Origin: a virus
Direction: 5' to 3' (one strand)
IMG/VR virus record: IMGVR_UViG_3300045988_049479
Location: 117,652-181,651 of that record
DNA: 64,000 nucleotides
How positions within the stretch are numbered: the first letter of the stretch is position 1; each line of letters opens with the position of its first letter. The translations under genes were made by a program, and so were the position numbers. Positions 1-19,566 of this stretch are shown piece after piece. The notes under the pieces were generated by a model. That model saw only the letters and a program-made list of their open reading frames with translations. It was not told where the DNA came from and did not search any database.

Positions 1-757
1 ACCCAATGTCAGATTCTAATCCCTTAGAACAATCTGTGTATAATAAGTATAAACCATTTAAATTGATATCCTTTTTAGAGCCATTACCTAACTCAACATA
101 ATTATGAGAACACATTGTTCCTTCGCAAGCTATAGAGTTTATGCAGAGTAAATGGTCCACATATACATTCCACGACTCTAATTTAGACCCAGGTTCTGTT
201 ATCATATCATTAGTCTCTACGGTAATTATCTAGTTATTTGCGTCTATGATAGTTTTTAAAGTTTTCTAGTCTTTAGTAAACATAAACTAGTTTACAGGGG
301 TCTCCTATAATGTAGTTGCTAACTTAGACTTATCTCCAACCCAAGCTAGCTTTTGGTTTATTTGTTCAGCGGAGAAATTTAAATTTTTGTAATTTTCCAT
401 TTATTAGATTTTTAATATTGTAAAGTACAATACTTAACAATTTTAAATTATTTATTCACAAGTCCAAAATCTTTTTTGACTTTGTTTTTAATATCCATTA
501 ATTTAGTAAGATATTCTTGATAATCTGTTATGATAGAAGAATCTGTGCTAAGGTTTTTTGTATAACTATTATACGAGTTGATTAAATCAAATTCTTCATC
601 TATGGTTATAAAACTTCTAATAATAGCTCTTACGCAATCCTTATAATTAGGTTGCCCATTAAGTAAAACCTAGATGAAATTGTACTAAGTTTCAAATTTA
701 GTACTGTCTTTCTCATCTAGTATTTCAACTTCAGCCTCAACTTCTCTTATATCGTAA

Positions 758-2032
758 TTATAATAATAAGTACCGTTCCCAAGTTTTTGAATTACCTAAG
801 GACAAACGTTCATTTGTATTCTATTCGGTTCTAACATAAGGTGTTACTTTAAAATTTATAGGAAATTTGTATCTAAGCAAAGAATAATGTAATTTCTTAT
901 TCTTGCTTTTAAAATAATAGGGTTTGTTGTTATACATAAAGTGCACTCTGAAATGGCTATGATAATCAACCACCTCTATGATATGAATATACTTATTATA
1001 AAACTTAGATATATTGACTTCCTTTCCATTCCAATTTGAGAACTTCAAACCAGTCAAAGTTTCTATCTTTTTCAACAAATTCTTAGAATCACAGAATTTC
1101 ATCCAGCTGAAATAAGATCTCATTCTTCTTTCCAATTCTTCTTTATCAATCTTATTTTGCTTATATAGATTTATAAGCCTAAACATTCTCATTTTTATAG
1201 ATTTTCTTAATAGAACGTGAGTGTGATAAAATTTGTAACCTACAAAATCTACTCCTCTACTTTCTACTGGAAATATCTAGTAGTTAGGTTTTAATTCTAA
1301 ATTAAGAACTTGTTTCAAATACAGTTTTATAGATACTAATACATTTCTCAAATAATTCTTGTCATTACCAAGAATCACAATATCGTCAGCATATCGAAAG
1401 TAGTACTTACATTTTAACTCCTCTTTTATCCAGTGGTCAAAATATGTCAGATATAAATTTGCAAAGAACTATGATAGATAGTTTCCAATAGGAACTCCTT
1501 TGGCTGAATATATTATTTCCTTCAATAGACTTAACAGTTTCTTATCCTTTATTTTCTTCTACAACATCTCATACAGGATGTCATGTGTTATAGATGGATA
1601 AAATTTTCTTATATCCATTTTTAGGCAGTATTTAGTTTCATCTGAGTATTTCTACAATACCTTGAATAAATCATACTCTACCTTATGAATCCCTCTGTTT
1701 CTTATAGAGGAATATGTCTAATCTATAAAAATACTGGTCCAGATAGGTTCCATAATATTCATTATAGCATGATGAGTGATTCTATCAGGGTAATATGGAA
1801 GTCTAAAGATTAATCTTTCTTTAGGCTCATATATTATAAATGTACTATATTCAGAAGTCTAATAGATTAGCTATTTTAATTTGTCTGATAATTCCTTATT
1901 TTCTTCTAATCTATTCTTATCATGCTACTTAATACCACATCGAATTGATTTATTTCTTCTAGCCTTATCATCAGCTAATTCGATGTTTTTCAAATCATAC
2001 ACTCGTTCGTGCAAATATCCTACACGTTTCAA
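758..2032 (-). CDS. DGR-type reverse transcriptase, amber-recoded (about 10 in-frame TAG); start codon uncertain (TTG at 2032 or GTG at 2002)
   Basis: Manual minus-strand translation in a single frame from the TAA at 2036-2038 down to the TAA at 758-760. It contains an RLIFRLPYYPDRITHHA stretch, GVPIGNYLS[TAG]FFANLYLTYFD, FRYADDIVILG (YxDD) and a VDFVGYKF thumb motif. Tracker ORF 821..1192 is its C-terminal fragment; it stops at an in-frame TAG at 821-823 and the frame reads on. Confidence 0.8.
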
Positions 2033-2104
2033 TTTTTATATATTTCATCGGAAGCTTTCGAGATTTAACCTACTAACACCCTTCATTTAACACTACGTTG
2101 TCTT

Positions 2105-2119
2105 TTGCCTAGAGGCAAG
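2105..2119 (-). other. Small hairpin (ttgcc-tagag-ggcaa) between TR and RT
   Basis: Inverted repeat read directly from the sequence. Confidence 0.3.
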
Positions 2120-2173
2120 GATATTACTTAGCAAACTAAAAAAATAAAATAAATTGTTCTAAATATATAATAA

Positions 2174-2271
2174 CTCGACATTGGAATTGGCATTGCTGAC
2201 GTCATTGTTAGAATTGAAATAGCTGAGACCTGCATTGCTGCCATTATTCGCGTTGCTGCCTACTAGCAGTT
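2174..2271 (-). repeat. DGR template repeat (TR), non-coding, rich in AAT/AAC codons in the VR frame (ANNGSNAGLSYFNSNNDVSNANSNVE)
   Basis: Aligns base-for-base without indels to 2373-2470 (offset 199) and to plus-strand 28831-28923. Of 25 mismatches against VR1, 23 fall where TR has A on the minus strand. In the VR frame the TR contains stop codons, so it is not coding. Confidence 0.85.
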
Positions 2272-2345
2272 CTTTTTTGCCAATCAACGGTTTTTAGAAG
2301 TAATATCCTACGATTTATATCTAAATCGATTTTCTATATTTTATC

Positions 2346-3521
2346 TTAAGATACTCTATTTAGAGTCCTAAACCCGACATCGGAACCGGCAAGGCCGACG
2401 CCATAGTTAGAATAGAAACAGCCGAGACCCGCATCGCCGCCAAGCTTCGCGCAGCCGCCCACCCGCAGCGTGCGAAGCTCTGTAGAGGTAGCATTGCAAG
2501 AGTGGTAGTCACATATATAAGTTGTAGCTGAGGCTCCAGTACAAGAAGATGGTATAATCTCTGCTGTCTCTCCTAAGTCAAACTCTTTAATGTATCCATC
2601 TTGCGCTACCTCGTATCCTGCTATGGTCTTGCTGCCAATTACGTCAGTAAACTCTTCCTTGTTTGTGGTAGTATACACACTACTGATTTCATTTGCCGCA
2701 GTTCTTTGAATAACTACTCCATCTAGGTTTGTCCAAATATCTCCAAATGGATTATCAAAACCTCTCCATCTTGGAACTTTAAATGTCTTAGTCGCTACTG
2801 TATCTGTTTCGTTTGTTGCAGTACACTCTGGAATAACTAAATCTTTGATTCCAGTGAAGTTACCAATATCATTACAATAACCACATGGAGTAATAGGATA
2901 AGTTCCATTATATCCAGACCAACTTGTAGCAGAGTTACTCCAGTCTGTAACTCCAGGACCAAGTCCTCCTTGACGATAACCATCAGAAGTAAGTTCGGCA
3001 TTATAGGCAGCCTGGGAGTTAAAGTTAGCATATTCTATTACATAGTTCCAGTAGAATATCCATTTATAATATTCATAGCATAATAATTCAGAACCTGCAT
3101 TTGTAGCATAAGTTCTCATATTAGCTCTAGAAACATTAGTTCTAGGTTTTCCTAAATCGCTTCTAAAAGCATCTTTGGTATCAAGTTCAGTAGTTAGATA
3201 CTCATCGAATTGTGCTCTATTTCCACCACCTCTAAATGCTTCTGTAGTATTGACCACAGACACAGCTTTAGGGGTTGCTGACACAGTATTATCAACGGTA
3301 TTTCTATATGCGTCAATTAATAGTTCTGGTATTTCTACCCATGAATCATCAAGCTTTACTAGAGAAATTCTAACCCATCTTTTATTTCCATTAGAGCCTG
3401 ATTTACCATAAAATTTAGGAGTGTGGACTCTTACAGTTCCATCAGTTCCATCGAGCACAGAAGGAGTACTTCCATCTTCTTTGTAAGCCCAATCGTCCGG
3501 ATATAAATAGTAATTTACCAC
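2346..3521 (-). CDS. DGR target protein 1 (putative receptor-binding or tail-fibre protein with a C-terminal variable domain)
   Basis: Tracker ORF of 391 aa with a GTG start. It has no internal TAG although the flanking genes are TAG-rich. VR1 sits at its C-terminus. The frame stays open upstream through two TAGs to a TAA at 3729-3731, so the true start could be TTG at 3720-3722. Confidence 0.7.
   Translation of the reverse strand: MVNYYLYPDDWAYKEDGSTPSVLDGTDGTVRVHTPKFYGKSGSNGNKRWVRISLVKLDDSWVEIPELLIDAYRNTVDNTVSATPKAVSVVNTTEAFRGGGNRAQFDEYLTTELDTKDAFRSDLGKPRTNVSRANMRTYATNAGSELLCYEYYKWIFYWNYVIEYANFNSQAAYNAELTSDGYRQGGLGPGVTDWSNSATSWSGYNGTYPITPCGYCNDIGNFTGIKDLVIPECTATNETDTVATKTFKVPRWRGFDNPFGDIWTNLDGVVIQRTAANEISSVYTTTNKEEFTDVIGSKTIAGYEVAQDGYIKEFDLGETAEIIPSSCTGASATTYICDYHSCNATSTELRTLRVGGCAKLGGDAGLGCFYSNYGVGLAGSDVGFRTLNRVS
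2373..2470 (-). repeat. DGR variable repeat VR1 at the 3' end of the target gene; GC-rich; encodes ...RVGGCAKLGGDAGLGCFYSNYGVGLAGSDVGFR
   Basis: Differs from the TR almost only at TR adenines (A to G, T or C). The protein ends in a GFR motif typical of C-type-lectin-fold DGR targets. The TAA stop follows 27 nt downstream. Confidence 0.85.
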
Positions 3522-5192
3522 ACCGTTATTTGCTACACATCCTCTGTAAGCGGACTAAATAGGGAGGGATTTATGTAATAGTGGGTTTCCTATTCTAGTA
3601 AGGATAGGAGAAGATACGGTAATATCCCATTCTACTCCATAAGAGTATAAGTCTACGTTACTGCTTAACTCTGTGACTTGTTTGCTTAGACTCTATTGTT
3701 CTTTTTGTAATTCTTCCCAAGCAGTATTAAGAGCATTAAATTGTTCCTCTAACTTAGTACTAGTATCTGCCCACTATGCAGTCCCATCTTCAGAAAAGGT
3801 TAAAATCTATCCAAGTGCTCCTCCAGCAGGTATGTGTTTATTTCCAGAAGTAGTTGGGTGTACATAATTATTTGCATTATCTGCAATACCACTAAGTTTC
3901 TGTTTTTCAGTTTCTGTGTAATTAGCTTCAGAAAGTCCTTTTCCTAATTCTTTATCTACCTTACTTTCCAACTCCGTTTTAGTAGCTAAACCACTTATAT
4001 CCTAGTGTTCCTTTAAATAATTTTCATCATTCTATAACTAAGACACTTTAGTTGGAATGGCACTAGATTTTGCATATGTCTAATCTATAACATTTCCAGA
4101 GCCATCATAGGTAGCCTTTAAGTCATATACGGTTTCTCCAACCTTTATAGATTTGATAGCTGCCATATTATTGTATTATTAAAGTTTCTTCTTCTACATT
4201 ATGATCTATTCCTTCTATGGAGGCAGTTAAGTCTTCAACAGCTTTCTACAGTTCAGCCTTGGTAGCGTAGTTCTTTAATGTATCTGGGTCTATTCCAGAT
4301 CCTCCTATATTTCCTCCAACAACTTTTACTGGTTTTGCTGAGTTCTTAAACTACCCTTCAACCCAAATTGTTCCCATACTATTTAAAATATTAATTGTTC
4401 ATTTTCTCCATCTACCTGTACGTTACCAGAACCAGGCTATATTGCATCTATTTTCTTCTACAATTCGTCTACAGCAGCCTTTATTAATTCTTCCACCTCA
4501 GCTTTTGTATAGTAGCGTTCTGTCAGATATTCACTTCTGACATATCCTGTATCCTATATATCTTTTTCTCCATAAGTACAATAGTACGTATCGTTCTCTG
4601 TCTTATTATTTTCAACTAAGTCATCATAATCTGTTTGTGGAAGACATACCAATTTAGGAACCTCTTCTGTAAGAGCAACTTGCTTTCCAGATGCTAATAA
4701 TCTATTGTCTTCTGTAGTAAGTTTAACAGAACTTTCAATAGTCTGTTCAGTTGTTTCATCTTCTGAACTTTCTCCAGTTGTTCCCTATTGTACTTCTTTT
4801 TCGACAATTTTCTAAATAGTAATATCAGAAGTTTCTATAGAGGTTGATTTTAGAAGCTCTGTGCTAAATTCCTTAGAAGCGGCATCCTAATCTTCCTAAT
4901 ATTTCTTCTAGGTAACAAATATAAAATCGTCATCACCAGTTTCGGGAGAATCTCCTCTTAAACTTTCTTTTGTCACATACTCCTCTGCTATCTAATCGGA
5001 AAGGTCGGTTAATGACTATTGAGTGGCGTATGTAGATTGAGCATTTTCTTTTGTAAGAAACTTTTCATCTACCTACGAGCTAGTGTAGTATGCTTTAATA
5101 TCTTCTGTAGTAACGTAGCTTCCTAGTTTCTATAAACCAGAAACAATTTCATCAATCTATGTCTTTGAGTAATAATTAGTAGCAACCCAGGA

Positions 5193-6251
5193 CTAATACT
5201 GATGTGTAGTATGGTAATTTTGATCTAAGTACTCCTTAGTAATATAGACTTTAGCATCATTTGTTACATCATACACATAGTAATATGTGTCAGGTTCTAT
5301 AGCCTCATCTTCTACCAGTTTTAAATATTCCTCTTCAGTTAATGTAACCAGATTAGGAACATCTGACATCATGGCGAATTGGTCTTCTCCAACAAACAAT
5401 CCATCAGATTTAACATCTACTACTAGCTAATCCTTCCCTTCTACTACTGGAGACTTTATCTATCCTACAGTAATACTTTCTAGGGAACCATCTCCATCTA
5501 CCTTTAAAGTCTTATCTAGCTCATCTTGAATAGCCTATTGGTCTTCGTCATACTATTTCTTTGTAACAAAGACAAAATCATCTCCTTCCATTCCTTCTCC
5601 TCTAAGACTTTCTTTGGTAACAAATATGTCATCAGTTTCTTCCTTAGTATAATGGTTAGATAAGGCTTTAGATAACAAGGATTCTGGGTCCTCTAAATCT
5701 AGATCAGTTTTAGGGGCATAATTCTCAGTTAACTCTTCAAGAGTAGCATACTTGGAAAGGTTAGAGATTGTCTAGTCTAAATCCGTTCTAATCTGTACGA
5801 CAGTAGTATTTAGAGCTTTCTATTTCAACTATTCCTCTATCTTTTTACCCCATTCTGCTGATAAATAAAACTAATCATCATCTAGGCTGTCTTCATATAT
5901 ATAATAATATGTTTCTGCATGAAGATATGTTTTATTTTCGTCTATAGGTTTAAAATCTTCTGTGGTATTTTCAGACCATTCCTTATATTCAGCCTCTGTA
6001 CAGGTGATTATCTAAATAGATTCATAAGAAGCTTTCCAACCTTCTTTGTATTTAATCTTAGACTTATCTACTAGCATATAAATATTTCCGTTATCTATAT
6101 TTGAAACGGTCATGCCTTGATAAGCATATTTCTCCGGAATAGAATATAATTCGTCTAAATTATCGACTACTGTTCTATTATCAAGAGGTTTAGGAGTTTC
6201 TACGGTTAAAGCAACGCCTAATGTAGCATCACCTGTATATTTAAATGCCAT
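5193..6251 (-). CDS. Amber-recoded acidic structural protein; ATG at 6249-6251 overlaps the upstream stop as TAATG; 3' end not determined (frame continues below 5193 through TAG)
   Basis: Manual translation from 6251 down through tracker ORFs 6012..6251 and 5193..5399 stays in one frame, interrupted only by TAG (for example 6012, 5871, 5829, 5820, 5772, 5694, 5553, 5535, 5517, 5466, 5460, 5427, 5193). Confidence 0.5.
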
Positions 6252-7840
6252 TATTGTGATAAAGTAAAGTTAATTTGATGAGGCAATGCTGAAGAATAAG
6301 TATCCTTCTTAGTCCATACTTTATAAGGAAATCCATTTATCTATTCAGTAGAAGTTTCCCAGCCACTTAAATCAACATTTAGGTATCCTAGTCCTCCATC
6401 TACTGTAAATGAATTTAGCTAAGTATTACTTCCAGGTAATTTTATAATAGCCTTTCCACTTAATGAAAATGTAATAATTCCAGAAGATTGTCCAAATGGA
6501 ACAAGACTCTATTTGATTAAACTATCTGTATTACCAGAATACCAAGGGTAGGTAGCAGTCACCTATGCTGTAGTTGATATTGAACCAGCCTCCACCCTCT
6601 TGTCTGTAACCTCTCCCTTGTTGTTAATAAGATATTCTCCAGCAGCATAATTTACGGTACCAGAATGCACATAAACACCGATAGAATCATATGTTTCAGA
6701 TTCTACAGGAGAATCATTATAGGTAATAGTTTCTTCTCTACCAGTTTCCTCTCCAGCATCATTTTTTATAAATGTTAAAGTAGGGGTAAGTAAAGCGGAT
6801 CCTACCTCCACAATCTAAGAGGTGAAGCTATAATACAACTAAGGATAAACCAAATCTCTAACAACAGTAGGAAATAATAGAGTGTCTATAATCTCATTAA
6901 ACGGCTTTCCTTTCAATTTTTCAACTGTAGTTCCTTGAATAACAGTAGAAGTAGTATCATCTGGAAGTTCAGTTTGATAAGTAGCTATAGTTTCTAAACT
7001 TGTCTATATATTTGTGATATTCTCAGTATTAGAATCTACTTTAGAATCAGTGTTCTTCTAAGCTTCCTATACTCCCTTAACTTCTTCCTTTACCTCTGTT
7101 AGAGATGGTTCCAGGTCTTTTACATATATTCCAGGTAGAACTACTGTGGAAGGTTCTCCTTCCTCCTCTACTGGAGGAATTTCCTACTGAATCAGATGTA
7201 TTGCATTATCCTCCTACTAAGATAGAATTACTTCTAGAGTATTATCATCCTTTATTTCTATGGTTTTGGAGTTTCTTAGACTATTAGTTATCCAATTCTA
7301 GATGTTTTTGTCAACATCTATATTTTTGATAGACTCATTAATATCCTCTATTGCCTCATTAATCTAGGTTATTTTCTCAGAAAGATTGTTTATGCCAGTT
7401 CTGTTAGATTCAATTTCTTCTTCAAGTTCTTCCTTAAGTACAGTAATAGAAGTTCTGATATTACTTATATCAACTTTTATTTCCTCTATTTCTTCTGTAT
7501 TAGCTTCGTACTAACTTATAAAGAATAAAGCATAATCTAAGGCATCTTTTACAGTATTGATATTCTCTGCAACATCACTAGTATAAGTCCATTTCTATTC
7601 TATGTACTATACTAAATCTTTCTAGGCTTCTATAGTTCCTTCTATATTTCCCCAAAGAAGACTCTACTCATCAGCGATACCTAGATTCTTTCTAACCTTA
7701 GCTCTTTCTAATTCAGTTCTATATTCTCCAAGATAGTTGTTTCTTAGGAGAGGTATAGGTTCACTTTTTATTAAATGTCCTTTCTTTCCACAAGGCTTTA
7801 TATCAGCATTGCTTACCGAAGTATAAATAGGCTGTATCAT
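6251..7840 (-). CDS. Amber-recoded coiled-coil tail-fibre or needle-like structural protein (about 529 codons, about 20 in-frame TAG)
   Basis: Manual translation from ATG 7838-7840 to TAA 6251-6253 in one frame. The only internal stops are TAG. The frame is closed upstream by a TGA at 7847-7849. Heptad-like, E/K/I-rich sequence. Confidence 0.6.
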
Positions 7841-10800
7841 TATGATTCAATAATTGCTATTTAATAAATTCGTGATTATCTAATTTTACGGGTAGGTTAA
7901 TAAAACAAATTAGATTCAAAATATCCTAATAATCTGGTCTATATCCCTTTCTAACCCTTTTAAGGAAATCCTCATACCTTTTAATAGCCTTTCTTTTAAG
8001 AGCATCCACAACCTATACGTTTATGTTCATGGTGATTGTTACAGAATCCACCGCAAGTACGGAACATTGCTAACAATCTTTCAGCTTCCATGAATTGTTT
8101 AAAGCCTATTAAATAATCTATAATGTTAAGTGTCATCCAGATAAAATCTCTTGCAAATATATCTGCATCATGTTCTCTAGTTAGACACTTATTTAATAAA
8201 GAGTCAAAGAGTTTCTTACAGTAGTTAATATAACACTATTGCAGATTTCCTGTAAAGAATACATCTACCTTACATTTTTTGATAGTAGTTCCTTCTATAT
8301 TTCTCTCAAGGATTTCTTTTACAGTACATTCCTCTAGCTCTCCATCTACTTCTTTATATAGTTTCTCTCCATCAGTTATATAGATAGTTTCATAATACTC
8401 CTTGTATTCATCAGATGAATTTTCATACCATTTCATATTAGGAAGAATTATGTGGTCTACTACATAATATCCATCTTCTTTCACCTTAAATGTACAAGAG
8501 TCTAAATCCTCTGTATGGTCATTGAGAAGTACGTCTATCAAAGTAGCATCTCCTATACTAACTTTTATGATAGTATTTAGGGTAGCACTTTCACTATACT
8601 TATAAGAATCATAGGAAGTTACTACCTCTAAATCTTCATCAATATACTATCCATATTCCTTTGAAAAGTCTTCAATAGTTATTTCCCCGTTAATCTGGGT
8701 ATGTATATCAATACTAAATTCCATATTATAATAATTAAGACTCAGTAGTAGGCCATTGACCATATTGAGCAGGAGTAGAAAATGGTTTCCACTTACCTTC
8801 TTGTCGTATACGTCTAGACATAAAAACTGAACTAAATGATAAACTAATATCTTGAGGATAGTCTGTCCATGTATATGACTAACCTTCAGGAGTCGGTGGT
8901 AGACTATTTAATTTACCAGCTGGTTTCCCATTCCAATAATAATTATAGTCATATGCCTTAGTTGGAGTAACAGTCGTTGTTTCATGTCCTTCTGAATCTA
9001 CATATAGAGGATTTCCATCCTCATCTGTTTTCTGCTTATACTCAATAACTGGAGTTATTCCCTCAGTTCTAGTGTATATATTCTAGATAATAGTAGAAAC
9101 ATCGCTTGCCACAATCTCATAAATAGTAGTTCCCTGAGATTCGTCAGCTCCCTAGAAAGTAAATTTAGTTCTTTTCCAGATGTATGGATTCTCTTCAGTT
9201 GGAAGTTCAAAAGTATCAGTCCACTATTTAGTAGATAATTTTATCTCAGATTCTTCAGCAGTATCAGCAGGTAAGTAATGAATCTTAATAATAATATTAT
9301 TTACCGCTTCACTAGAACCAGAAAGATCTGACACCTATTTAAATAGTTTCTTTAAATCTTCTTCCACATTTGATTTGGAACCAGAAGCATTACTAATAAT
9401 TACTGAACCATCTGAAATAGGATAAATCTATTGCTAATCCTTATTATATACAATTGTTCCAGTTGCCATATTAATGTATTTGTCTTATTTTGTCATTATA
9501 TGGATTTCCATCATGAAGCTAAGCTAACTCTATTTCAGTTCTCTTTTCTTCTATATCCATTTGTCTATCTTTATATGTAGAATCAGATTGAGCTTTGAGC
9601 CAGTTAACTTTATATTCTAACTACATTTTCTGCTACTCTAATCCTAATCTCTATTCATCCAAACTTTCTATCTTCTACTAAGCTTTCTATAGTTCTTGCT
9701 GTAACTGCTGTGCCTATTGTGAAGTTTCTTCCAGTTTTTCCTATAGCTGCTATAGCTAATTGTTTTCTTCTTTACGAATCTATACTGCTTTCTTAACCTT
9801 ATATTTAAGGTCTGTAAGACTCTTAGCAGTTAGTGCTTCAAATATGATGTCAGGATCCATTTGCTGACTTTTAACAAACTCTGGAATAATGGCTTTAATA
9901 GTTTGTAAATCTTCCATTACTTCAGAGCTAGAAGTTATATGGATGTCATAATCAGTAACCGTAAAATATTCTGGAAGTGCTGTAAATATCTGCTAGTATT
10001 TATCTCCAAGTATAATAGTACCAGTCAATCCTTTCTTATATGTTATTTTAGCCTAGTTTAGACTATCCAATAATATCTCACAAGTGATTAGGTCCATCTA
10101 CTAGAAATAATGCTTGGTTACTATGTAAGAGTTAGTAACACCTTGCTTAATATTAGTTACAGCATCGTGAGTTTCTATTCCATTTAATCTTTCTCTAAAT
10201 ACTCCAGTTATAGATGATGTAGTTTGTTCTACTGATTGAATTGCTAATTCAATAGCCTATACAGCCTAAGCTTTTAAGGTATCATCAAATCCATTGTATA
10301 TCTAGTTAGGTGCTTGCGCTCCGTCATTTCTCTCTTCCTAAGTAGAATCAATCCACATGATACCACCCTTCTTGTATGCTAACCATTTCTACACTCTTTC
10401 TGGCCATTTTACGCCTAGGTTAGTAGGAAGCAATGACATATCCATGATTACTCCAGCAGTACCGCTGTTAGCTATCAGGTTATCCCTATAATAATTTAAC
10501 AAGTCATATCTATCCTGTAGATGTGCACACTTTAATATCAGAGAGTACGGTTGTTGAGAACGATTTAAGAAATATACCCCATTCACAGACAAAGAGCAGA
10601 AATTAGGATTATCTTTTGACCTCATAACAGTCTTGTCTAGACCTCTCAGAATATATATTTCTTCTCCAATTCTAATGGTATTGTATCTCTACATTACAAA
10701 ATCGTCATCAGTTTCTATCCACTCTACATCATAAACAGGAATTAACTAAAATCTATGAGCACTATATTCATTATCTGGATATCCAGGAATAGTTTCATGA

Positions 10801-11839
10801 TTCTAGTCTTCGTTTACTATAGTACAAGTGTCACCATAAACTCTTCTATAAACTGCAGCTGAATCATCGGCTCTCCATTCATCTTTTAGTCTTTTCAGAT
10901 CTTCTCTAGAGATTTCTTTTCCGTATTTAGCTAATATCTAGCTTTTACTCATCCATTTTCTAACTACTACTCTATACGAATTTCTAACATATGGAGATTC
11001 TGGATTCCTATCTACGAAAGTATTTAAAGGATTCAGAACTTCTATTTCTATGTTAGTTCCAGAAGATGATGATTTTACTCTGAAAAATGTATAGCCAGTA
11101 ATTAATAAATCTGTAAGTAACTATCGGAGTTTAGTTATTAAATCGGTTTCTCTAGACTGCATAATATAATGAATAATATTCTATGCAGCTATCTCATATT
11201 GAGAAATAAAAGACTAATCAATGTCTTGAATAATTTTATCTAACTAAGTCTTCACGGCTTTATCTGTAATATCTTTTCCGTCGATAAATTTCAGAATAGA
11301 ATTACTTAAATGGTCTCTAAGAAATTTAACTATTCCTTTAGTTATTTCTAACTATTTTTCTCTGGTGATATTACTAATGGTATCTGAATCCTTACAAGAA
11401 ATCTTCGGAAGGATAGGGGTTCCTAGATATTCCCCTACTAGAGCATCTACGTGCTTTTTTAGTAATGGTGTAAATTCTACAGAAGTAGGACTACCTATTC
11501 CAAAGTTTTCTTCCAGGTAACGAAACTATTCTGGGTCTCTCTTTCCGTTATAGTAATTATAGGCTTTCTATAATTCGTACTTATCATATACAAGCTCCGC
11601 AATAGCCTCGTTCGTCTTGTCTATCAGTTCTTTTTCTTTCATAACATAAATTATGCTGTTCTGGAGGAAGTTTAGTTGCATTATAGTATTTAACTCTTTG
11701 TAACTTCCTACTTCTTAATTCTTCCTTTATAAATGGGAGAAATTCTTCATCAGGTAAATCAGCTATAATGACTAAAGGCATCTCTGACCTATCAAAGTTA
11801 AACGATACCTTATAACCAACTGGATCTAGGTTCTGAATT

Positions 11840-14200
11840 TCAAGCCCACCTACGTATTCCATTTTGTACAAGTCTCTCATATAACCTAGGATCACTTGTT
11901 TCAATTCTGTATGGGTCATCGTATTCATTTTTTTGTATGTTAGTTTCAAAAGTCTTAGAAGTTGGTATAACCCCAAATCTTTTGATTCCTCTCTCGTCGT
12001 AATAATAACCATAATCTTGGAATTGTTCAACTTCTTTTTCAACAAGCACTGGCTATCTTCCTGACAATTCCTAGTCTGCCAATTCTGTCATTCCCACAGC
12101 TGCTACAATATCGAATTTACCTTTATTCTCATCATTATATCCAGTAAATTGGTCTAACATTTCTTCAAACCATATAGTATGACAGAAATCCTCAATAAAG
12201 GCTGCTGTCAAATCAGTATGTTGTTCTATAATAGTTTTGGTAGCGGGTGTTCCGTACTATTTAGTAGTTCCATTCTTGACGTCTGTTAGAGTAGCTCTAG
12301 GTCTTTTCATAAAGTAGTTTAAACAACCCTTTTCTCTAGCCCAGGTAATCATACCTACACGGGTAGCTTCTATGTTTATTCTACAATTATAGTATCTAGC
12401 TAAACACATAGCTATTTTATAGGCTTCTCTAATGTCATTAGGTCTGTCTTTATACATAGCAACATACTACGGTTCGTTTAGACCAAATGCTCTTCTTTTT
12501 ATAGTTATACAGAAATCAGAAGGATCTCTTGTTTCTTTTGAAGTTTGACTAGCTCCTATATCAATACCGTCTATTCCTGCAACATATAAATCATGCATTT
12601 CTTTGTACGCTGGAGATTCAAATTCTTCTCCCCTTTCCTCGGCTTCCTATCTAAGTTTATCCATCTACTCTTTATACAAATCAGACCATACAGGATGTTC
12701 AAGTATTTTTACTTTTCCGTTAATATTAGGAATCCATTTAAAACCATCTATATTATCCTAGGTGTGTTTATTATTTTTATAGAAATAGTCTATGTATCCA
12801 GATTCTGGTCTTGGTCCTATTTTCTTAAGTCTTATATTAGCTAACTGGTCCGCAATAAGAATCTTGTTGAACTTGTTAACACCTTCAAGATTAAATGCTT
12901 CTTCTGCATTCCAACATCGTTCAGCACACTTCTTTAGATAGTCATCTGGAACTGCTAATAAATTGTCGCGCTCTTCCTATAGATACTTCTTATATTCTAC
13001 TGTATTACATACACCTCTATGGTCCATGTATTCTGAATTTAGAGACTAGACAAAATATGGAATGAAGAACCCACTTTCAATAGTAGTCCCATCCTGGGTA
13101 TAATTATGTCTAAATGGAAGAACTTTGTAAGCTTTTGGATTATAATATATCTTCTTAAGACCTGCTAATGGAGCGCCCATATCACCACCAGTACCTCCAA
13201 ATAACATTGTTCCACGAGGTTTACCTTGAACTTCACAAAGCTCTTGTCCCTACACTACAGCAGTATCTAGTCCAGGCCAAGATCCTGCTTCATCATATAT
13301 TAATAAGTCAACACGGTCTCCACGAATATTAGATGCCTTAGCTCCGTTTATTCCAACTACTTCCGATTTAAATCCAACATCCTCAAACTGTCCGTTTACC
13401 TTAATCTGTTTACCGGACTTCTTTCTTAAGTCTTGGTCAATCAAACGTAGTTTGAAGAATCCTCCTCCTGTACAAGTATTCAAGAATGTTAAAGCATTAT
13501 CAAACTTACTAAAAGTACCTTTAAGGAAGGTATCATTAAAACAGGTAATCATTACTCTGCTTCTTCTGATTACTGAATACATTCTTGCAGATAAGGATGC
13601 ATTTATTTCAGAGAATCCAATAGAACGAGCTTTCATAAGAGCTGCGTGTTTATGCAGAACTCTAGCCATCTATAGATAATGAAAGAACATATAATGAGAT
13701 GCGAAAAATATAGGAAAGTCACTACTTGTTCCTTCTCCAGATGCCTTGTTATCATCAATAATAGGAAGCTAGTAGAAGTTTAGGAAGAAATAGTTATCTC
13801 CAGTAATTGTATAACCATTAACAGTCATTCCATATTTACATCTTCTATACTATTCCTTCCAAAACTCATTATATCTCTTACTATCTTTTAGATATGGACA
13901 ATACTTTCCAGTTTTTCTATATACTTCTCTGGTCTCAGTAAACCAATCTGGGTCGAAATCAAGACCATGTGTTTCATCTATTGGTCTATATCCAGTTATT
14001 TCATAAGATAAAGTAGGGTCAAATACCTCTATCTTATCTCCTCTTTTTACATCCCAATAATCAGCATTTTTGCCTCTTTCCTCTCTTATCTTCTATACTA
14101 GTTCTCTAGCTTCTTTGGCATCCTCTTTTTGTTCTTTCTCTCTTACCTAATCTACTATATTCTAGATTTCTTCAGGTAATATTTTTTTCTTTCTAGGCAT
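11840..14200 (-). CDS. terL: Terminase large subunit-like protein, amber-recoded (about 16 in-frame TAG)
   Basis: Tracker ORFs 13250..13669, 12257..12457 and 11840..12049 are all in the same frame (start mod 3 = 1). I checked 12050-13250 triplet by triplet and found only TAG, no TAA or TGA. An ATG at 14198-14200 begins MPRKKK... A Walker-B-like VDLLIYDEAGSWPG and a C-terminal nuclease-like segment are present. The gene ends on TGA at 11840. Confidence 0.5.
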
Positions 14201-15582
14201 AATTAAAAGTCTCCTGGGTCAAAGCCGTCTGTAGCTCCACCTCTTACAGTAGATTGTTCTGTAAGCTCTTTCTTAACCTGCTCTTCTAGTGTTACTAATT
14301 CTTCATGAACTTTATGAAGAGTAGCCATTTCTTTCATTACCTTTTCAGCTTGAAAGACGGGTTTGCCATTATTATCACGTTCATTTAAATCTACTATAGT
14401 ATCAAAATAATCAATAAACTAGTCAGCTGCTCTTTTAGCTGCTTCTAGAAGTTTTATTGATTTGTTAGAATCCTACAATGCTCGGTATTTTCTACAGGCT
14501 TCCCTGAATAACGGGTCATTAAATTCGGATTCAGATAGTCCAGAGTCACTAATAGCTTCATCATGTCTTTCATGTTCTGAATATTGGCTATAGGGACTCT
14601 TCCAATCAATAGCTAGATAAATGTAAGATAATTCTCTAGTTACTCGTTCCTTGTCAACAGATTTATCTCTCTGTATCAAAGCCTTAAACTCTTTAACTAG
14701 AAGAAGCTCTGGTTCATTTATTTCTAACTATTTAGTTAAAGTGTTATAATTAAATACATTCATACTCATCAATCATTAACATTAACATCTTTAATCTTTT
14801 TATTTCATTTTAGAACCGCATTTACTTACTTTCATTTTAGAACCACAAGCATCTTTCTTAGCATACTTTGTTCTATCTGGAACCCATTTTCCATTTTTAA
14901 AGTTTCCCTTGTGTCCTCTATTTGCCATGACCTCCTAGTCATTATATTTATTAATAGATACAGAATCTCTGGATGCTTCATCCTTTGCAGATTTCATATC
15001 CTTTTTATACTAAGCTCTTCCAGCCTTGAACTTGTCAACTTCATTAGCTTTCTTAGTAACCTTAGTTCCTTTCTATGCTTTTTGGCAAGCTTTGCAGATT
15101 CTTCCTCCCTGTTTAAAATAAACAAGTTCCTCTCCTTCTGGGCATACTCCTTTTAATTTTTTATAGTATTCTAGTTTAGCTCCAAGTCTAGCCATAACTC
15201 CGCCTTGCATCTTCTACATAAATTCTTGATACTTGGCTTTGATTCCATCTTCTCCAAGCTACTCAGCGTAAGCCTATAAATCTTGCTCTGATTGTAGTTG
15301 TATCCCTTGTGCTTGGGCATCTTGTATCAAGTATGCCATGAATGCTTTCTGTAATTCTTCCTAATTAGCCATTACTCTTCTACTTTAATTAAATCCTTTG
15401 TATTAAATACTGCTTCCTGCATTAATCCAGAATCAGTAAACCATCTACATCTTAGTCCTCGTAATCCTTGGTTATCTTTAAATAAAGCTGCTTCTCTTCT
15501 TAGAACAAGCATAACTGGAGAGTGCATTACTTTACACTACCGTAAAGTAACACAATCCCCAGGCTTAAAATAAACTTTTTCA

Positions 15583-16185
15583 TCAATTGTTTCCATGCTT
15601 CAATTCGTCTCTTCTTTCAGTTAGTTTCTCATTAACTACAGCCATGATTCTATTCTCATTAACTACTACAAATCCTAGTTTATAGAATGGAACCATACAT
15701 TCACTAGCTATTGTATAAAATACAATATCTCCAGGCTTCAAGAACTCACACTTATGTCCTACTTCTATCACAGTTCCTACCTTAATAAATTGTTGCTCTT
15801 CTTCAATTTCTCCAGTCTCATTAGATTTATAAGTAGGAGTAAATCCACCTAAATCAGTAATAAGACCGCTTTTAGTAGTTTTTATTTTTTGGAATGGGTT
15901 TTGTTCAAAGGGTTTAATTAATGCATACCCATACATCGGCATAATTTCAACTCCATTCATATCGTTAGATAATGATTTAGCGTAATCCTCTAGTGCCTGA
16001 TTATGTTTAGAGAATTTATCTTCTAACTCATCTACTGCGGTATTAAACTTCTCTTGTTTTTCTCTTAATAATGTTTGGTCTGCAGCCTCTCCATTTAAAA
16101 TAAAATGTTCTCCCGTACCTTCCATTCCAGTTAATGATAGTGCTAGTTTTTCGTTACTGTTTAATTCTGTTCTTAAAGTTTCCAT
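15583..16185 (-). CDS. Protein with C-terminal GroES/cpn10-like domain (standard code, no TAG)
   Basis: Tracker ORF of 200 aa. The C-terminal half reads ...ALIKPFE...KTTKSGLI...VGTVIEVG...KPGDIVFY...AVV, which resembles the cpn10 fold pattern. Confidence 0.4.
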   Translation of the reverse strand: METLRTELNSNEKLALSLTGMEGTGEHFILNGEAADQTLLREKQEKFNTAVDELEDKFSKHNQALEDYAKSLSNDMNGVEIMPMYGYALIKPFEQNPFQKIKTTKSGLITDLGGFTPTYKSNETGEIEEEQQFIKVGTVIEVGHKCEFLKPGDIVFYTIASECMVPFYKLGFVVVNENRIMAVVNEKLTERRDELKHGNN

Positions 16186-16193
16186 AATTCATT

Positions 16194-16577
16194 TTACCAT
16201 TTACATAAATCACAATGTTCATCTTCAATTCTTGTTTTATTCTCTAATATACAACCACATTCATCGCACACTTCCCCAACAGATGTTTGTAATTTATGGG
16301 AACAAGCGTCACAAATTTTTAATCTTTTGGTTGTCAAATCTTGATTTATTCCGAATATATTGAAATATATACTTTTCAATATTGTTAAAGGTTTAATAAA
16401 TATTGCTTTAATCCATTTCCATATCATATCTTCTTCCTCCTTCTCGTTTATATTTTGGACAGTAAGTATATAATGCTTATCTGGTTTATATAATATAGGA
16501 GTTCCATAGATTACCATTTCCCTGCTGGGCAATGTTTCTTTTCGTTTGGAATCTTCTTCTCTAGTAAACATCCACAT
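16194..16577 (-). CDS. Cys-rich zinc-ribbon protein (paralog A)
   Basis: Tracker ORF. C-terminus reads ICDACSHKLQTSVGEVCDECGCILENKTRIEDEHCDLCKW. Confidence 0.4.
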   Translation of the reverse strand: MWMFTREEDSKRKETLPSREMVIYGTPILYKPDKHYILTVQNINEKEEEDMIWKWIKAIFIKPLTILKSIYFNIFGINQDLTTKRLKICDACSHKLQTSVGEVCDECGCILENKTRIEDEHCDLCKW

Positions 16578-16726
16578 CCCTTTATATACCCTTCTTTAGG
16601 GCTTATACTTATATCATTATTCTTTGGATTTAGATACAAATGCCCATTACATAATCCATTATCTTGGTCACATATTGGACAGCGTCTACATATCTCAAAT
16701 CTTTCTTCTATTTCCTCTAGTGTCAT
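16511..16726 (-). CDS. Cys-rich zinc-ribbon protein (paralog B); overlaps paralog A by 67 nt in another frame
   Basis: Tracker ORF. C-terminus ICRRCPICDQDNGLCNGH...GCGCLLEKKIPNEKKHCPAGKW is homologous to the paralog A C-terminus. Confidence 0.4.
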   Translation of the reverse strand: MTLEEIEERFEICRRCPICDQDNGLCNGHLYLNPKNNDISISPKEGYIKGCGCLLEKKIPNEKKHCPAGKW

Positions 16727-16728
16727 AA

Positions 16729-17643
16729 TTAATATTCAATACGTTGACGTTTTCTTTTATTTTCTGCCAATATAGATTCCTTCTTATAGAAGGCTAGCAT
16801 TTTTATAACCTCATCTTTTAGATATGGCAAATGATATACTGTCATATTGTCATTATGGTCGAAATGTACCAAAACCAAATCCTCTATTTCAAACTCTGGA
16901 TTTTTCTTTTGAATCATCCAAGCATAAGTACTTAATTGTAAAGTATAGTGCCAGTAATTAACATCATCTAAATTATTTAGAGGATATTTCATCTTAACAG
17001 AAGTTTTGGTTTTAGAATTGAAGAAACTCTTAGTTTCTATTTTCTTATTGGTCTTCCAGTCTCCTATAATTATCTTATTTCCTCTTTTAACTAATAAGTC
17101 AATCTGTCCTGCTATTCTTAGCTTTCCATCATCCGATACTCTAGATATTAAATACTCAGGATATACACCATTCTCTAAGTCTAATTCATTGTGGTCTTTT
17201 ATACACTCGAACTTGCCACCTATTTGATATTTACTAAGGTCTATGTTCTGTTTCTTTTTATAGAAAGAGTTTTCCAAATCTGCATGGATTTTAGTTCCCC
17301 TCTCGCATGAGTTTCTATTCTCTAAATCCCAAGCATCTAAGATAGCTTGTTGCTCTTTATTAAACTCGTCTTCTGTAATGTTATGAAGTTCAAGTAGAAC
17401 TTTATCAAATTTCTTAGTGTTCAACAAAGACTTTTTTTCTATAGCCCAATCTTCTTTAGGTAAGAGTTTCTCTAGTGCTTTATATGCTGACCAGAACTCC
17501 TTATCAAATGGTTGGGTGAAAGAATGAATTAAAGTCGTTACAGATATAAACTTCTGTTCTGGCTTTGTAACATCATAATAAATATGAGCTTCTTCCTCAA
17601 AAGCTATGTTCCCATTTTGTTTTGTAATTTTACTTTTGTCCAT
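16729..17643 (-). CDS. PD-(D/E)XK family nuclease-like protein (standard code)
   Basis: Tracker ORF of 304 aa. The stretch GQIDLLVKRGNKIIIGDWKT fits a D...(D/E)xK nuclease core. Confidence 0.45.
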   Translation of the reverse strand: MDKSKITKQNGNIAFEEEAHIYYDVTKPEQKFISVTTLIHSFTQPFDKEFWSAYKALEKLLPKEDWAIEKKSLLNTKKFDKVLLELHNITEDEFNKEQQAILDAWDLENRNSCERGTKIHADLENSFYKKKQNIDLSKYQIGGKFECIKDHNELDLENGVYPEYLISRVSDDGKLRIAGQIDLLVKRGNKIIIGDWKTNKKIETKSFFNSKTKTSVKMKYPLNNLDDVNYWHYTLQLSTYAWMIQKKNPEFEIEDLVLVHFDHNDNMTVYHLPYLKDEVIKMLAFYKKESILAENKRKRQRIEY

Positions 17644-17757
17644 TAGTCATAATTCATTTAATCATTTATCACATTTATCTATATTTATTTGATACTTTTC
17701 AAGTATATTAATATTCTTTGTAAGATACAAATCAATAAATAATACATTATATTAAAA

Positions 17758-18099
17758 ATGTCTAACAGTAAGAAAATTACAACATTTGGGTGTCCAATTT
17801 TCAAAAATGGGTCGGGCATTCACATTAAAGAGAAGAACAGAGGCAAATTTACAGCATCTGCCAAGGCAGCAGGAGAATCTGTACAAGAACACGCTAAGCA
17901 TGTACTAAACAATCCTAACGCTACCCCTCTTTAGAAGAAGCGAGCTAATTTTGCTAGAAATGCTTCTAAATGGAAACACGAAGATGGGGCTAAGATACAT
18001 AAACCGAGTGGACATAGGTCTATTCTAGATAATGGATGGATTCCTACTACTAGATTAAAGAAGGGAACTTATGGATTTATTAAAACTAAGAAACGATGA
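17758..18099 (+). CDS. Small very basic protein (113 codons) with one in-frame TAG (17932-17934); plus-strand gene embedded in the leftward module
   Basis: Codon-by-codon manual translation from ATG 17758 to TGA 18097-18099. The tracker missed it because the TAG splits it into fragments under 60 aa. Confidence 0.45.
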
Positions 18100-18173
18100 A
18101 AAACATTATTAAGTGCATTAAAGAGATTGTATTAAGAATATATCTATATTTACTATTTATATTTAAAAAGTAA

Positions 18174-18308
18174 CATGGACTATAACAAAGCAACTTTACA
18201 CGCGGCAACAGGTCGTACTCTCTTACTTCCTGGATGGAGAGGATATTTTTATTGGGATTATTCTAAAAAGGAATTGAATTTCAGAAACGGAGATTATCAT
18301 TTAGATAA
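18174..18308 (+). CDS. Tiny ORF (44 aa) ending TAA TAA
   Basis: Manual translation; no other support. Confidence 0.2.
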
Positions 18309-18605
18309 TAAATAGCTTAGAGAAAAGGGAGTCATGGAGAGAACTGATTGGTACTATATTATATAACAAAATAGGCGAGCCTAGAGATTAGGTTCGCCTA
18401 TTTTTATTTAACATTATACTTTGTATCATAAGTACAAGTGATTCTATTTATACCATCCTCCCACCAAGGTTTATCTGATGGCTATCTAATACCACTTGGG
18501 ATGGTTATTGTAGGAGTAGAAGTTTCTACTATAGCATCTACTATTTTAAATAATGTATCCAAGTCAAATTCTGGAAATTCATTATGTAAGTTTGTCAATG
18601 TCTTT

Positions 18606-18842
18606 TTAAAGTCTATCATATCCCTCAAATGTATTATCAATTATTGCTTTTTCTAGTGTAGTGTCTTTATATAGTCCATTTTTAATTAGATTTCTAACTG
18701 AATTGTCAACTACATTCCATATATCAATCAGTAATGATTTATTCTCCGGAACACTTCTAAGTGTACTTTCTAAATATCCGGCTTTTATCATATTTATTAG
18801 TTGACCGTTAATAAAGACTTCAAATTTAAATTCTTTATCCAT
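18606..18842 (-). CDS. Hypothetical protein
   Basis: Tracker ORF of 78 aa. Confidence 0.35.
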   Translation of the reverse strand: MDKEFKFEVFINGQLINMIKAGYLESTLRSVPENKSLLIDIWNVVDNSVRNLIKNGLYKDTTLEKAIIDNTFEGYDRL

Positions 18843-19010
18843 ATATTTTAGTATATTACACTTAGTCTATTTAATTCATCTAGGTAATCTAGAAACCATT
18901 GTTCATTTTGTTTTCCTTCTTCTGCAACAATCTCAATTAAAGATTCTGCTGCTAGGAGTATAGTTTCAGATAACTCTTTTAAATTTGGCTTAGTTAGTTC
19001 ATTGTATTTA

Positions 19011-19325
19011 TCAGTCAAGTTTAACATAATCCATCCAGTCTTTTATATATGATTTACATTCCTCTAAATCTGGATAGATACTTGCTATAGTGCAACCTGT
19101 TTTTGGATTCCTAAAATGATGGAGTTTTGCTTCCTCATTTTTCTCCTCTTCTATATTTCTATTTAATGTTCTATTCCAGTAGTTGTATTTCTCATCTAGC
19201 ATTTCCTTATCACACTCCTCCAATATTTTCATATTGGGATTACTCATTATTTTGTCATACTTTCTTTTTAAATTAGAAACTTTGACAACATCATTACCAT
19301 TCAATACGACTGCACACTGTTTCAT
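19011..19325 (-). CDS. Hypothetical protein
   Basis: Tracker ORF of 104 aa. Confidence 0.4.
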   Translation of the reverse strand: MKQCAVVLNGNDVVKVSNLKRKYDKIMSNPNMKILEECDKEMLDEKYNYWNRTLNRNIEEEKNEEAKLHHFRNPKTGCTIASIYPDLEECKSYIKDWMDYVKLD

Positions 19326-19549: not shown

Positions 19550-19566
19550 AACTATTAATTTTGGCG

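Follow-up and report, generated by a model that had tools for sequence, protein, structure and literature searches.

A TAG-recoded late gene block carries the reverse transcriptase of an Avd-less DGR, most likely as a passenger, in a probable crAss-like phage

Does the recoding of stop codons in a DGR reverse transcriptase (RT) serve to control mutagenic homing, or does the RT share a decoding requirement with all genes around it? This question is raised by a 64,000-nt stretch of viral DNA (IMG/VR record IMGVR_UViG_3300045988_049479, positions 117,652 to 181,651; here called the window), in which the RT frame of a DGR is interrupted by amber codons, one of them in a catalytic motif. The original prediction was that hypermutation is gated by expression of a suppressor tRNA. 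Our analysis leads to a less specific reading, to which we assign a probability of roughly 85%: the locus is an Avd-less DGR in a crAss-like phage with a late block in genetic code 15, and the RT is a passenger of this block that has no dedicated control.

The RT coding sequence is located on the minus strand at 758–2032 and specifies 424 amino acids if TAG is read as Gln. It starts with a TTG codon at 2032; at the aligned start position TTG is found 44 times, ATG 31 times and GTG four times among 80 related loci. The frame is limited by an upstream TAA (2036–2038) and the terminal TAA (758–760), and the 424 sense codons in between include neither TAA nor TGA; at the trinucleotide frequencies of the window a run of 425 codons free of both has a probability of about 1.5e-9. 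The product matched Pfam RVT_1 (2e-18) and PHROG 1423 ‘Reverse transcriptase’ (1.6e-112), and its best match among solved structures was the RT of the Bordetella phage DGR (8ub7, 7e-45). Group II and retron RT structures followed far behind at 1e-15 or weaker, and the scores against the NCBIfam models for group II, retron and Drt3a RTs were all far under the cut-offs. Both elements of the DGR-RT criterion, (I/L/V)GxxxSQ and YxDD, are present: the former in PIGNYLSQ (residues 181–188, 1492–1469), the Q of which is a TAG, the latter as the YADD catalytic box (residues 214–217, 1393–1382). The assumption that the frame from 2032 to 758 is open only when TAG is translated is thus borne out by the lack of other in-frame stops and by the profile and structure matches. 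In three relatives (L004, L026 and L039) the RT frames are shortened at the C-terminus.

The number of in-frame TAG codons had been estimated as about ten; the exact count is nine. They are located at 1925–1927, 1871–1873, 1859–1861, 1718–1720, 1652–1654, 1559–1561, 1469–1471, 1277–1279 and 821–823 and correspond to residues 36, 54, 58, 105, 127, 158, 188, 252 and 404, respectively. The codon at 1277–1279 had previously been placed at about 1262, while all other positions had been given correctly. Because seven of the nine TAGs are N-terminal to the YADD box, no RT product can be formed without TAG readthrough, in agreement with the proposed dependence of RT translation on suppression. The last TAG (821–823) precedes the TAA stop by 20 sense codons. 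Its column is occupied by AAG in TAG-free relatives, whose RTs run on to 413–419 residues, and by this alignment it is a readthrough codon and not the true stop.

Two of the nine positions are particularly informative as to the amino acid inserted. The TAG at 1469–1471, in the context GVPIGNYLS[TAG]FFANLY, aligned to the Gln of bRT GIPIGSLTSQLFANVY and hence occupies the conserved SQ position, exactly as had been predicted; in the window and 80 related loci this column contains 42 CAA, 23 CAG and 16 TAG codons and no other codon, and it is Q in 39 of 39 TAG-free homologues. The TAG at 1277–1279 corresponds to a second invariant Gln, that of the ‘YQI’ element in KPNY[Q]IFPV (bRT counterpart HWQVAPV), with 55 CAA, 17 CAG, 8 TAG and a single CGA in the same set of loci. 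These are the only two invariant-Gln columns in the 39 TAG-free homologues, bRT 8ub7 also has Gln at each of them, and the probability that nine randomly placed TAGs hit both of them is about 4e-4. Within the close clade, nine polymorphic TAG columns occur in more than one genome, and six of these alternate with CAA or CAG only, apart from a single CGA. A BLOSUM62 vote over all TAG columns, taken from the TAG-free homologues, placed Lys above Gln; it was rejected as a composition artefact, the variable surface columns of the RT containing 12% Lys versus 2.3% Gln. With this vote set aside, the assignment is based on the two invariant columns together with the codon substitutions among close relatives. 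The alignments used were made at codon level from raw DNA loci, with bRT added; they replaced a first alignment of 120 database homologues, which was dropped as potentially circular since these proteins had possibly been translated with code 15 already. The comparisons indicate that TAG encodes Gln in the late genes of the window, as originally assumed. In crAss-like phages, including one of the Zeta group, the same assignment was proven by MS/MS (PMC9523058; PMC10136315).

A suppressor tRNA with a CUA anticodon and Gln-like features, for which positions 19567–19638 had been indicated, was indeed found on the minus strand at 19566–19638 (ARAGORN; Rfam tRNA, 66.3 bits). It is the sole minus-strand tRNA among the 28 tRNAs of the window and heads the minus-strand gene block, with the TAG-rich genes about 4 kb further downstream. 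Its closest paralogue is the canonical phage tRNA-Gln(UUG), encoded outside the DGR on the plus strand (34204–34276), with 78% identity as compared to 69% for the next-best tRNA, and U1-A72, G2-C71 and A73 are common to both molecules. The tRNA(CUA) is therefore predicted to be charged with Gln. The label ‘tRNA-Pyl’ given by ARAGORN derives from the anticodon alone and was rejected. Neither a theta/HDV-like ribozyme nor any other Rfam family was detected beside the tRNA at the gathering threshold. A scan of the 15–21 kb region for sigma-70 promoters and terminators yielded 27 sites versus 28.5 expected and thus carries no information on how the tRNA is transcribed; the promoters of crAss-like phages and Bacteroidota are of other types.

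The recoding is not peculiar to the RT gene. The entire late or structural block on the minus strand (1–15384), which comprises the genes for the terminase large subunit, the portal and tail proteins together with the DGR, is affected: all 13 of its 13 code-15 ORFs contain TAG, 133 TAG codons versus 105 CAA and CAG codons were counted among 4,798 codons, and no more than 2,985 nt of the block fall into ORFs of at least 80 residues if the standard code is applied. The genes directly downstream of the suppressor tRNA (15583–19325, minus strand), which include one for a PD-(D/E)XK nuclease, are different in that the well-supported ORFs are free of TAG and only three short ORFs have one TAG each. 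The large plus-strand genes are without any TAG, for example a gene of 652 residues with 46 CAA or CAG codons, and TAG is the stop codon of just 6 of the 55 standard-code ORFs on this strand, five of which have a backup TAA or TGA within 2–8 codons. Recoding is confined to the late and structural genes, and the plus-strand genes use the standard code. TAG is the most frequent Gln codon of the RT because the RT is situated inside this recoded block. It accounts for 9 of the 11 Gln codons versus 55% in the other late genes, an excess that is not significant (Fisher p = 0.12 for the share of Gln codons, p = 0.53 per codon), though a weak RT-specific bias could be hidden there.

The same picture emerges from the relatives. 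Across 44 related loci the RT and the adjacent target gene are correlated in their TAG density (Spearman rho 0.71), and the RT and its neighbours are either recoded together or TAG-free together; in sister phages with about 71% RT identity the RT and the neighbouring genes are all free of TAG. One relative (L047) is an exception, with eight TAGs in the RT and none in the target gene, and we attribute this mismatch to a putative swap of the tail fibre. The individual TAG positions of the RT are gained and lost even among close relatives. In one group (L005) the two invariant Gln, both TAG in the window, are encoded by CAA, and the CAA of the window at column 292 corresponds to a TAG.

The remaining parts of the cassette are arranged in the order tail-protein target with VR, TR, structured spacer and RT, all on the minus strand. 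The target gene (2346–4166, stop codon at 2346–2348) codes for a tail protein of 606 residues (PHROG 5302 ‘tail protein’, 1.9e-83) with eight in-frame TAGs of its own, and the VR (2373–2468) is located inside its last 41 codons. The TR (2174–2269), a 96-nt element with 30 adenines that is rich in AAY codons when read in the VR frame, sits 103 nt downstream of the VR. VR and TR differ at 24 of the 96 positions, 22 of them TR adenines and two being T-to-G changes; in most related loci the mismatches are at A only. The homology between the two repeats stops at GTCG(A/G)GTT, where no obvious GC-rich IMH is present. The spacer between TR and RT (2033–2173) features a conserved hairpin (2118–2105, TTGCC-TCTA-GGCAA), an AAAAGAyAACGTAG stretch and a second helix (2081–2050). 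It is kept in loci with as little as about 57% RT identity, and 12 pairs, five of them with compensatory changes, were predicted by RNAalifold. By analogy to the Sp region of BPP-1, the spacer probably functions as the 3' part of the DGR RNA. Searches of Pfam, PHROGs and NCBIfam with the small neighbouring ORFs at 448–843 and 1–400 gave no match to Avd or a four-helix bundle, though a very divergent Avd may have escaped them. Avd is a typical but not a universal accessory protein of DGRs. The C-terminal 301 residues of the target had no Pfam or PDB sequence match; for the DGR tail fibres of Zeta phages a C-terminal CLec domain has been reported from AlphaFold3 models (PMC12386605).

Evidence as to the activity of such cassettes comes from a comparison of VRs. 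An identical TR is present in 14 IMG/VR loci; the comparison covered the window and those 13 loci whose VR has the full length of 96 nt. These 14 genomes have 14 distinct VRs on one identical TR, with polymorphism at 25 of 30 A sites versus 7 of 66 non-A sites, and the DGR thus looks active in lineages with a TAG-bearing RT. Two sister groups with TAG-free RTs have 8 distinct VRs in 9 genomes and 4 in 4, and 22 of 28 and 20 of 31 A sites are polymorphic, respectively, versus 3 of 65 and 2 of 63 non-A sites. The TAG-free sisters diversify equally, from which it follows that the recoding is dispensable for the DGR.

We propose that full-length RT would be made only when the tRNA-Gln(CUA) of the phage out-competes release factor 1, and that DGR activity would accordingly depend on the suppressor in the very same way as the genes for terminase, portal and tail. 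The RT would thus travel as a passenger with the code switch of the whole block, and mutagenic homing would not be under dedicated control. The gene layout, taken together with the published recoding hypothesis, suggests that suppression, and hence RT synthesis, may be confined to late infection, and literature on the hosts of crAss-like phages suggests a host with the standard code.

The main alternative is the gate in its strict, DGR-specific sense, namely that the TAGs of the RT were selected to hold mutagenic retrohoming off until the suppressor tRNA has accumulated, either to confine hypermutation to a defined period late in infection or to limit the dosage or toxicity of the RT. We consider this unlikely. 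It is true that the seven TAGs ahead of YADD preclude an active RT without suppression, that TAG makes up most of the RT Gln codons and both invariant Gln of the catalytic core, that the weak TTG start points to low expression, and that in L047 a recoded RT stands beside a TAG-free target gene. However, the TAG density of the RT is no different from that of its late-block neighbours, the TAG positions are not conserved, not even at the two invariant columns, RT recoding follows the recoding of the neighbours, and VRs are diversified equally by TAG-free sister RTs. Moreover, the RT is already part of the late transcription block, directly downstream of a tail gene. Of the original claim of suppressor gating, the need for readthrough therefore stands, whereas a gate specific for the DGR is not supported, since the whole late block is recoded and the RT is not enriched in TAG. 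Equally unlikely is the more elaborate version, in which the TAGs, including those at both invariant Gln, and the weak TTG form a selected lock that provides a low RT dose and a short late window for retrohoming; if this were true, the TAG-free sister DGRs would differ measurably in the rate or timing of diversification.

A second alternative, in which no gate exists and TAG is an ordinary sense codon throughout infection, decoded as Gln by the host or by another resident element, appears very unlikely. A matching suppressor tRNA is present in only about 40% of TAG-recoded phage genomes, and other routes of readthrough are possible (PMC10136315). The present phage, however, encodes its own tRNA(CUA), and the standard code was reported for the hosts of recoded crAss-like phages (PMC10136315). 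The absence of in-frame TAG from the large plus-strand ORFs and the backup stops behind some TAG stops also argue against it, as this pattern would not be expected unless TAG acts as a stop for part of the cycle. A decaying RT pseudogene, with TR/VR differences left over from earlier activity, is hardly credible: the standard code does break the gene into fragments and some relatives have shortened frames, but every interruption is a TAG located at a Gln or polar column, 424 codons have remained free of TAA and TGA against the odds given above, the catalytic motifs are intact, and 14 different VRs, differing at A sites, occur on an identical TR.

The terminase large subunit encoded in the window has 26–29% identity to terminases of crAss-like phages and 42–45% to those of two unannotated gut phage records, the portal protein matches a PHROG portal family, and near-identical RTs are found on contigs of 183–193 kb; a megablast of positions 1–20000 against 50,697 phage records gave no match. 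These identities and the shared genome features described below suggest that the window probably derives from a gut crAss-like phage of about 185–190 kb that belongs to the Zeta group (proposed Echekviridae), a group typified by a Crassvirales-like TerL and portal, genomes of about 155–190 kb and a large block of tRNAs. In accordance with the window, descriptions of code-15 crAss-like and Lak phages (Yutin 2021; Borges 2022; Peters 2022, PMC9523058; PMC10136315) include TAG as Gln in the structural or late block only, a phage-encoded tRNA(CUA), and the standard code for early and replication genes. Switches between codes are known among closely related Zeta lineages (PMC9523058; PMC10136315). 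There is no difference in kind between the window and the known code-15 phages, nor does the locus reveal a new regulatory principle: the dependency extends to every late gene, as it follows from the established hypothesis of a late-gene timing controlled by recoding, late-gene recoding and its proposed timing role having been described before (PMC10136315).

What the locus does provide is an example of a DGR that works normally inside a code-15 gene block. Gene calling with the standard code shatters the RT and the late block, so that DGR finders miss such cassettes, a consequence for annotation that is already in the literature. The recoded and TAG-free sister DGRs, with nearly the same TR and target, represent a natural experiment, and their comparison could test suppressor dependence against the timing and amount of diversification of the receptor-binding protein.

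The DGR of Bordetella phage BPP-1 (mtd-avd-TR-brt) shares with the window a homologous RT (8ub7, E = 7e-45) with SQ and YxDD motifs, adenine-specific TR-to-VR differences, a tail receptor-binding protein with a C-terminal VR and a position within the late tail-gene region. Unlike BPP-1, the window has no detected Avd, an RT with a C-terminal extension of about 100 residues and a TTG start, nine sense TAGs that require a suppressor tRNA, and no evident GC-rich IMH at the end of the VR. Quimbyvirus (Benler et al. 2021, PMC8008677) is another gut phage with a DGR RT that needs non-standard decoding and with active adenine mutagenesis; its RT is encoded in three overlapping frames joined by two programmed frameshifts and is thus a gene-specific case, whereas stop reassignment in the window extends over a block of the genome. 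The closest precedent is found in the Zeta crAss-like phages, for which amber suppression in seven DGR RT genes with a GxxxSQ motif, in cassettes mostly without Avd, was published in 2025 (PMC12386605); the impression that no recoding-dependent DGR RT had been highlighted before was therefore mistaken. These phages resemble the window in their genomes of about 176–189 kb with many tRNAs, a tRNA(CUA) and amber recoding, in the order of tail fibre with VR, TR and RT mostly without Avd, and in RTs with a preserved GxxxSQ and long, variable C-termini. That study treats the ambers as an obstacle to annotation, and neither maps them to motif positions nor discusses the timing of DGR activity. The longest RT it describes has 414 residues, as compared to the 424 residues of the RT in the window.

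The DGR reverse transcriptase (RT) is encoded on the minus strand at 2032..758 by 424 codons, in which TAG is the sole in-frame interruption. The frame is delimited by a TAA just upstream (2036-2038) and by its terminal TAA (758-760), and the codon walk of 2032..758 revealed neither TAA nor TGA in between; the window trinucleotide frequencies give a probability of P ≈ 1.5e-9 for 425 codons free of both. The original prediction of a frame that is continuous if TAG is translated was therefore confirmed, but its count of about ten TAGs had to be corrected to nine (low coordinates 1925, 1871, 1859, 1718, 1652, 1559, 1469, 1277 and 821); the codon placed at about 1262 is located at 1277-1279, and the other coordinates matched. 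The start codon is TTG at 2032. Because a start codon recurs at the aligned position across 80 related IMG/VR loci (TTG in 44, ATG in 31, GTG in 4), the N-terminus can be considered as fixed. With TAG read as Gln, the RT matched Pfam RVT_1 (2e-18) and PHROG 1423 'Reverse transcriptase' (1.6e-112), and the best structure match was 8ub7, the solved BPP-1 DGR RT (bRT; E=7e-45), with group II intron and retron RT structures trailing at 1e-15 or weaker. Seven of the nine TAGs precede the YADD motif (aa 214-217), and termination at any of those seven would therefore yield an inactive fragment. Past the bRT-alignable region the RT carries a C-terminal extension of ≈100 aa (aa 330-424; window 758-1040, minus strand) whose length differs from relative to relative (RT frames range from 316 to 424 aa). 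One might speculate that this extension replaces Avd in an Avd-less cassette.

The meaning of TAG was deduced from a codon-level alignment of the 80 related loci together with the window (81 sequences). Raw DNA loci were used because database proteins may themselves be code-15 translations. Exactly two columns are invariant for Gln among the 39 TAG-free RT homologues, and the window RT has TAG at both of them (P ≈ 4e-4 for nine randomly placed TAGs). At the SQ column, 42 sequences have CAA, 23 CAG and 16 TAG, and no other codon occurs; at the second column the numbers are 55 CAA, 17 CAG, 8 TAG and a single CGA. The bRT alignment pairs PIGNYLS[TAG] (RT aa 181-188) with PIGSLTSQ, and KPNY[TAG]IFPV with -HWQVAPV. 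Both approaches thus bear out that TAG encodes Gln and that the TAG at 1469 in the SQ motif occupies a Gln column. Nine polymorphic TAG columns occur in more than one genome of the close clade (≥86% identity); at six of them TAG alternates solely with CAA or CAG, save one CGA. At the last TAG of the RT (aa 404), TAG-free relatives have AAG and their frames run on past this column; the codon is therefore read through and not a true stop. Two single contigs (L015 and L003) have a TAG at alignment columns 312 and 345, where TGG (Trp) is found in 79/81 and 49/81 sequences; these are either assembly errors or G-to-A variants by which a conserved Trp would become Gln. In crAss-like phages, one of them of the Zeta group, translation of TAG as Gln has been directly demonstrated by metaproteomics (PMC9523058; PMC10136315).

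The target gene (4166..2346, minus strand; 606 aa, 8 TAGs) is located directly upstream of the RT gene and matched PHROG 5302 'tail protein' (1.9e-83). Its last 41 codons contain the 96-nt VR (2468..2373, minus), and the 96-nt TR (2269..2174, minus) is found in the intergenic region between target gene and RT. Of the 24 mismatches between TR and VR, 22 fall at TR adenines and two are T-to-G; AAY codons are abundant in the TR when read in the VR frame. The T-to-G mismatches are at VR 2464 and 2445 (TR 2265 and 2246); the first, TR position 5, recurs in five identical-TR relatives (L019, L020, L022, L023, L032), so inheritance or selection, not random noise, explains it. No Avd-like protein was detected by Pfam, PHROGs and NCBIfam profile searches. 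In the 141-nt spacer between TR and RT (2033..2173, minus), a hairpin at 2118..2105 is followed by a second helix at 2081..2050; across loci L001-L051 of the related set the strongly conserved order is hairpin TTGCC-NCTN-GGCAA, AAAAGAyAACGTAG, second helix. Both elements are kept down to ≈57% RT identity, and compensatory changes are present at 5 of 12 predicted pairs. By analogy to the Sp region of BPP-1, the spacer probably serves as the functional 3' portion of this DGR's RNA.

The window and 13 related loci share the same TR, yet all 14 VRs are distinct, with polymorphism at 25 of 30 A sites versus 7 of 66 non-A sites. Since every RT of these genomes bears TAGs (3-9 each), the VR diversity implies that TAG-containing RTs are translated into active enzyme. 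In two TAG-free sister groups, 8/9 and 4/4 VRs are distinct, and the polymorphic sites comprise 22/28 and 20/31 A sites but only 3/65 and 2/63 non-A sites. Judged from these substitution patterns, the DGR is active in both recoded and TAG-free lineages.

A tRNA with the anticodon CUA was detected on the minus strand by ARAGORN (19566-19638) and Rfam (19567-19638); the ARAGORN label 'Pyl' reflects the anticodon alone. Among the 27 other tRNAs of the window its nearest relative is the phage tRNA-Gln(UUG) (78% identity; runner-up 69%), with which it shares the D-arm, the T-arm, U1-A72, G2-C71 and A73. It is the sole minus-strand tRNA of the 28 and heads the minus-strand gene block; the others are spread through the plus-strand block (21958-51772). 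About 4 kb separate the suppressor from the TAG-rich genes downstream of it, and the intervening genes are essentially TAG-free: between 15.6 and 19.6 kb on the minus strand, well-supported ORFs contain no TAG and three short ORFs one each. Below 15.4 kb, all 13 code-15 ORFs on the minus strand contain TAG, and the 4,798 codons of this late block include 133 TAG compared to 76 CAA and 29 CAG; under the standard code, ORFs of ≥80 aa cover just 2,985 nt. No TAG occurs in any large plus-strand gene, including those for an SPFH protein, a NAMPT-like enzyme, an AAA ATPase and an OmpA-like protein. Only 6 of 55 plus-strand ORFs end with TAG under the standard code (22629-48845), and five of the six have a backup TAA or TGA within 2-8 codons, which would keep C-terminal extensions short in the presence of an active suppressor.

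Full-length RT synthesis is predicted to require the phage tRNA-Gln(CUA), and this part of the original prediction stands. A gate specific to diversification is not supported: the RT shows neither enrichment nor conservation of TAG, and it shares its dependence on the suppressor with the terminase, portal and tail genes. Of the Gln codons, TAG accounts for 9/11 in the RT and for 124/227 in the remaining late genes (Fisher p=0.12), and per codon the RT has, if anything, slightly fewer TAGs (p=0.53). TAG densities of the RT and the adjacent target gene are correlated across 44 loci (rho=0.71, p=5e-8). Recoded relatives have TAGs in all neighbouring genes, and relatives whose RT is ≈71% identical have practically no TAG in the RT, the target or 9 kb of neighbouring genes, in agreement with the code switching of Zeta phages across short phylogenetic distances (PMC10136315). 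TAG positions also shift among relatives: both invariant Gln columns, TAG in the window, are CAA in a group around L005, and column 292 is TAG in that group and CAA in the window. For DGR function, suppressor dependence of the RT is dispensable in the sister phages. Selection of the RT TAGs as a lock that limits the dose or sets the timing of retrohoming appears improbable. A tie to the late phase would be expected from how the genes are arranged and from the published proposal that late-gene translation is timed by recoding (PMC10136315; PMC9523058). The reading best borne out by these data is that an ordinary, active, Avd-less tail-fibre DGR sits within a code-15 late gene block and that its RT would be made via tRNA-Gln(CUA), as for the neighbouring late genes. 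In L047 (IMGVR_UViG_3300001528_000192, locus 1689-5254) the RT has 8 TAGs and its other neighbours are recoded, while the 597-codon target gene has no TAG among 24 Gln codons, which suggests recent acquisition of the tail-fibre gene from a standard-code phage.

The window belongs to a crAss-like phage. TerL (14200..11840, minus) is 26-29% identical to crAss-like terminases and 42-45% identical to two gut phage entries that lack annotation, the portal protein matched PHROG portal families, and near-identical RTs are found on contigs of 183-193 kb. Taken with a tRNA(CUA), recoded amber codons and a DGR that lacks Avd and has a GxxxSQ RT, the TerL, portal, contig-length and tRNA features fit the description of the Zeta crAss-like phages (PMC12386605), and membership in this group is probable. 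Code-15 recoding of crAss-like late genes, its experimental validation and the presence of DGRs in crAss-like phages are already published, and amber-suppressed DGR RT genes were described from Zeta crAss-like phages in 2025 (PMC12386605). The DGR RT of Quimbyvirus (PMC8008677) likewise needs non-standard decoding, but through two frameshifts, a different case from TAG recoding. Added here are the mapping of TAGs onto both invariant Gln residues of the RT, the population evidence for functional recoded RTs and the identification of matched recoded and TAG-free sister DGRs.

The TAG-free plus block also encodes host-like auxiliary proteins (31031-32989, 55427-56443, 58321-59871, 24896-25855), namely SPFH/Band-7, an OmpA-like beta-barrel, a nicotinamide/nicotinate phosphoribosyltransferase and a weak radical-SAM match. 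A tmRNA match (RF00023; 44585-45161, plus; 63.1 bits, full model) received no ARAGORN call; at 577 nt versus 374 model positions it may be interrupted or contain a large insertion. A full-length RAGATH-14 RNA (RF03145; 156.6 bits) lies on the plus strand in the region 21725-22027, followed after 26 nt by a tRNA-like gene (21958-22027, plus) that ARAGORN reports as 'tRNA-???' and that scores 49.6 bits with the Rfam tRNA model (cloverleaf fold z=-3.1). Its anticodon loop has 6 nt (TCTCC-TTTAAA-GGAGA), and the anticodon could be UAA or UUA, depending on loop register.
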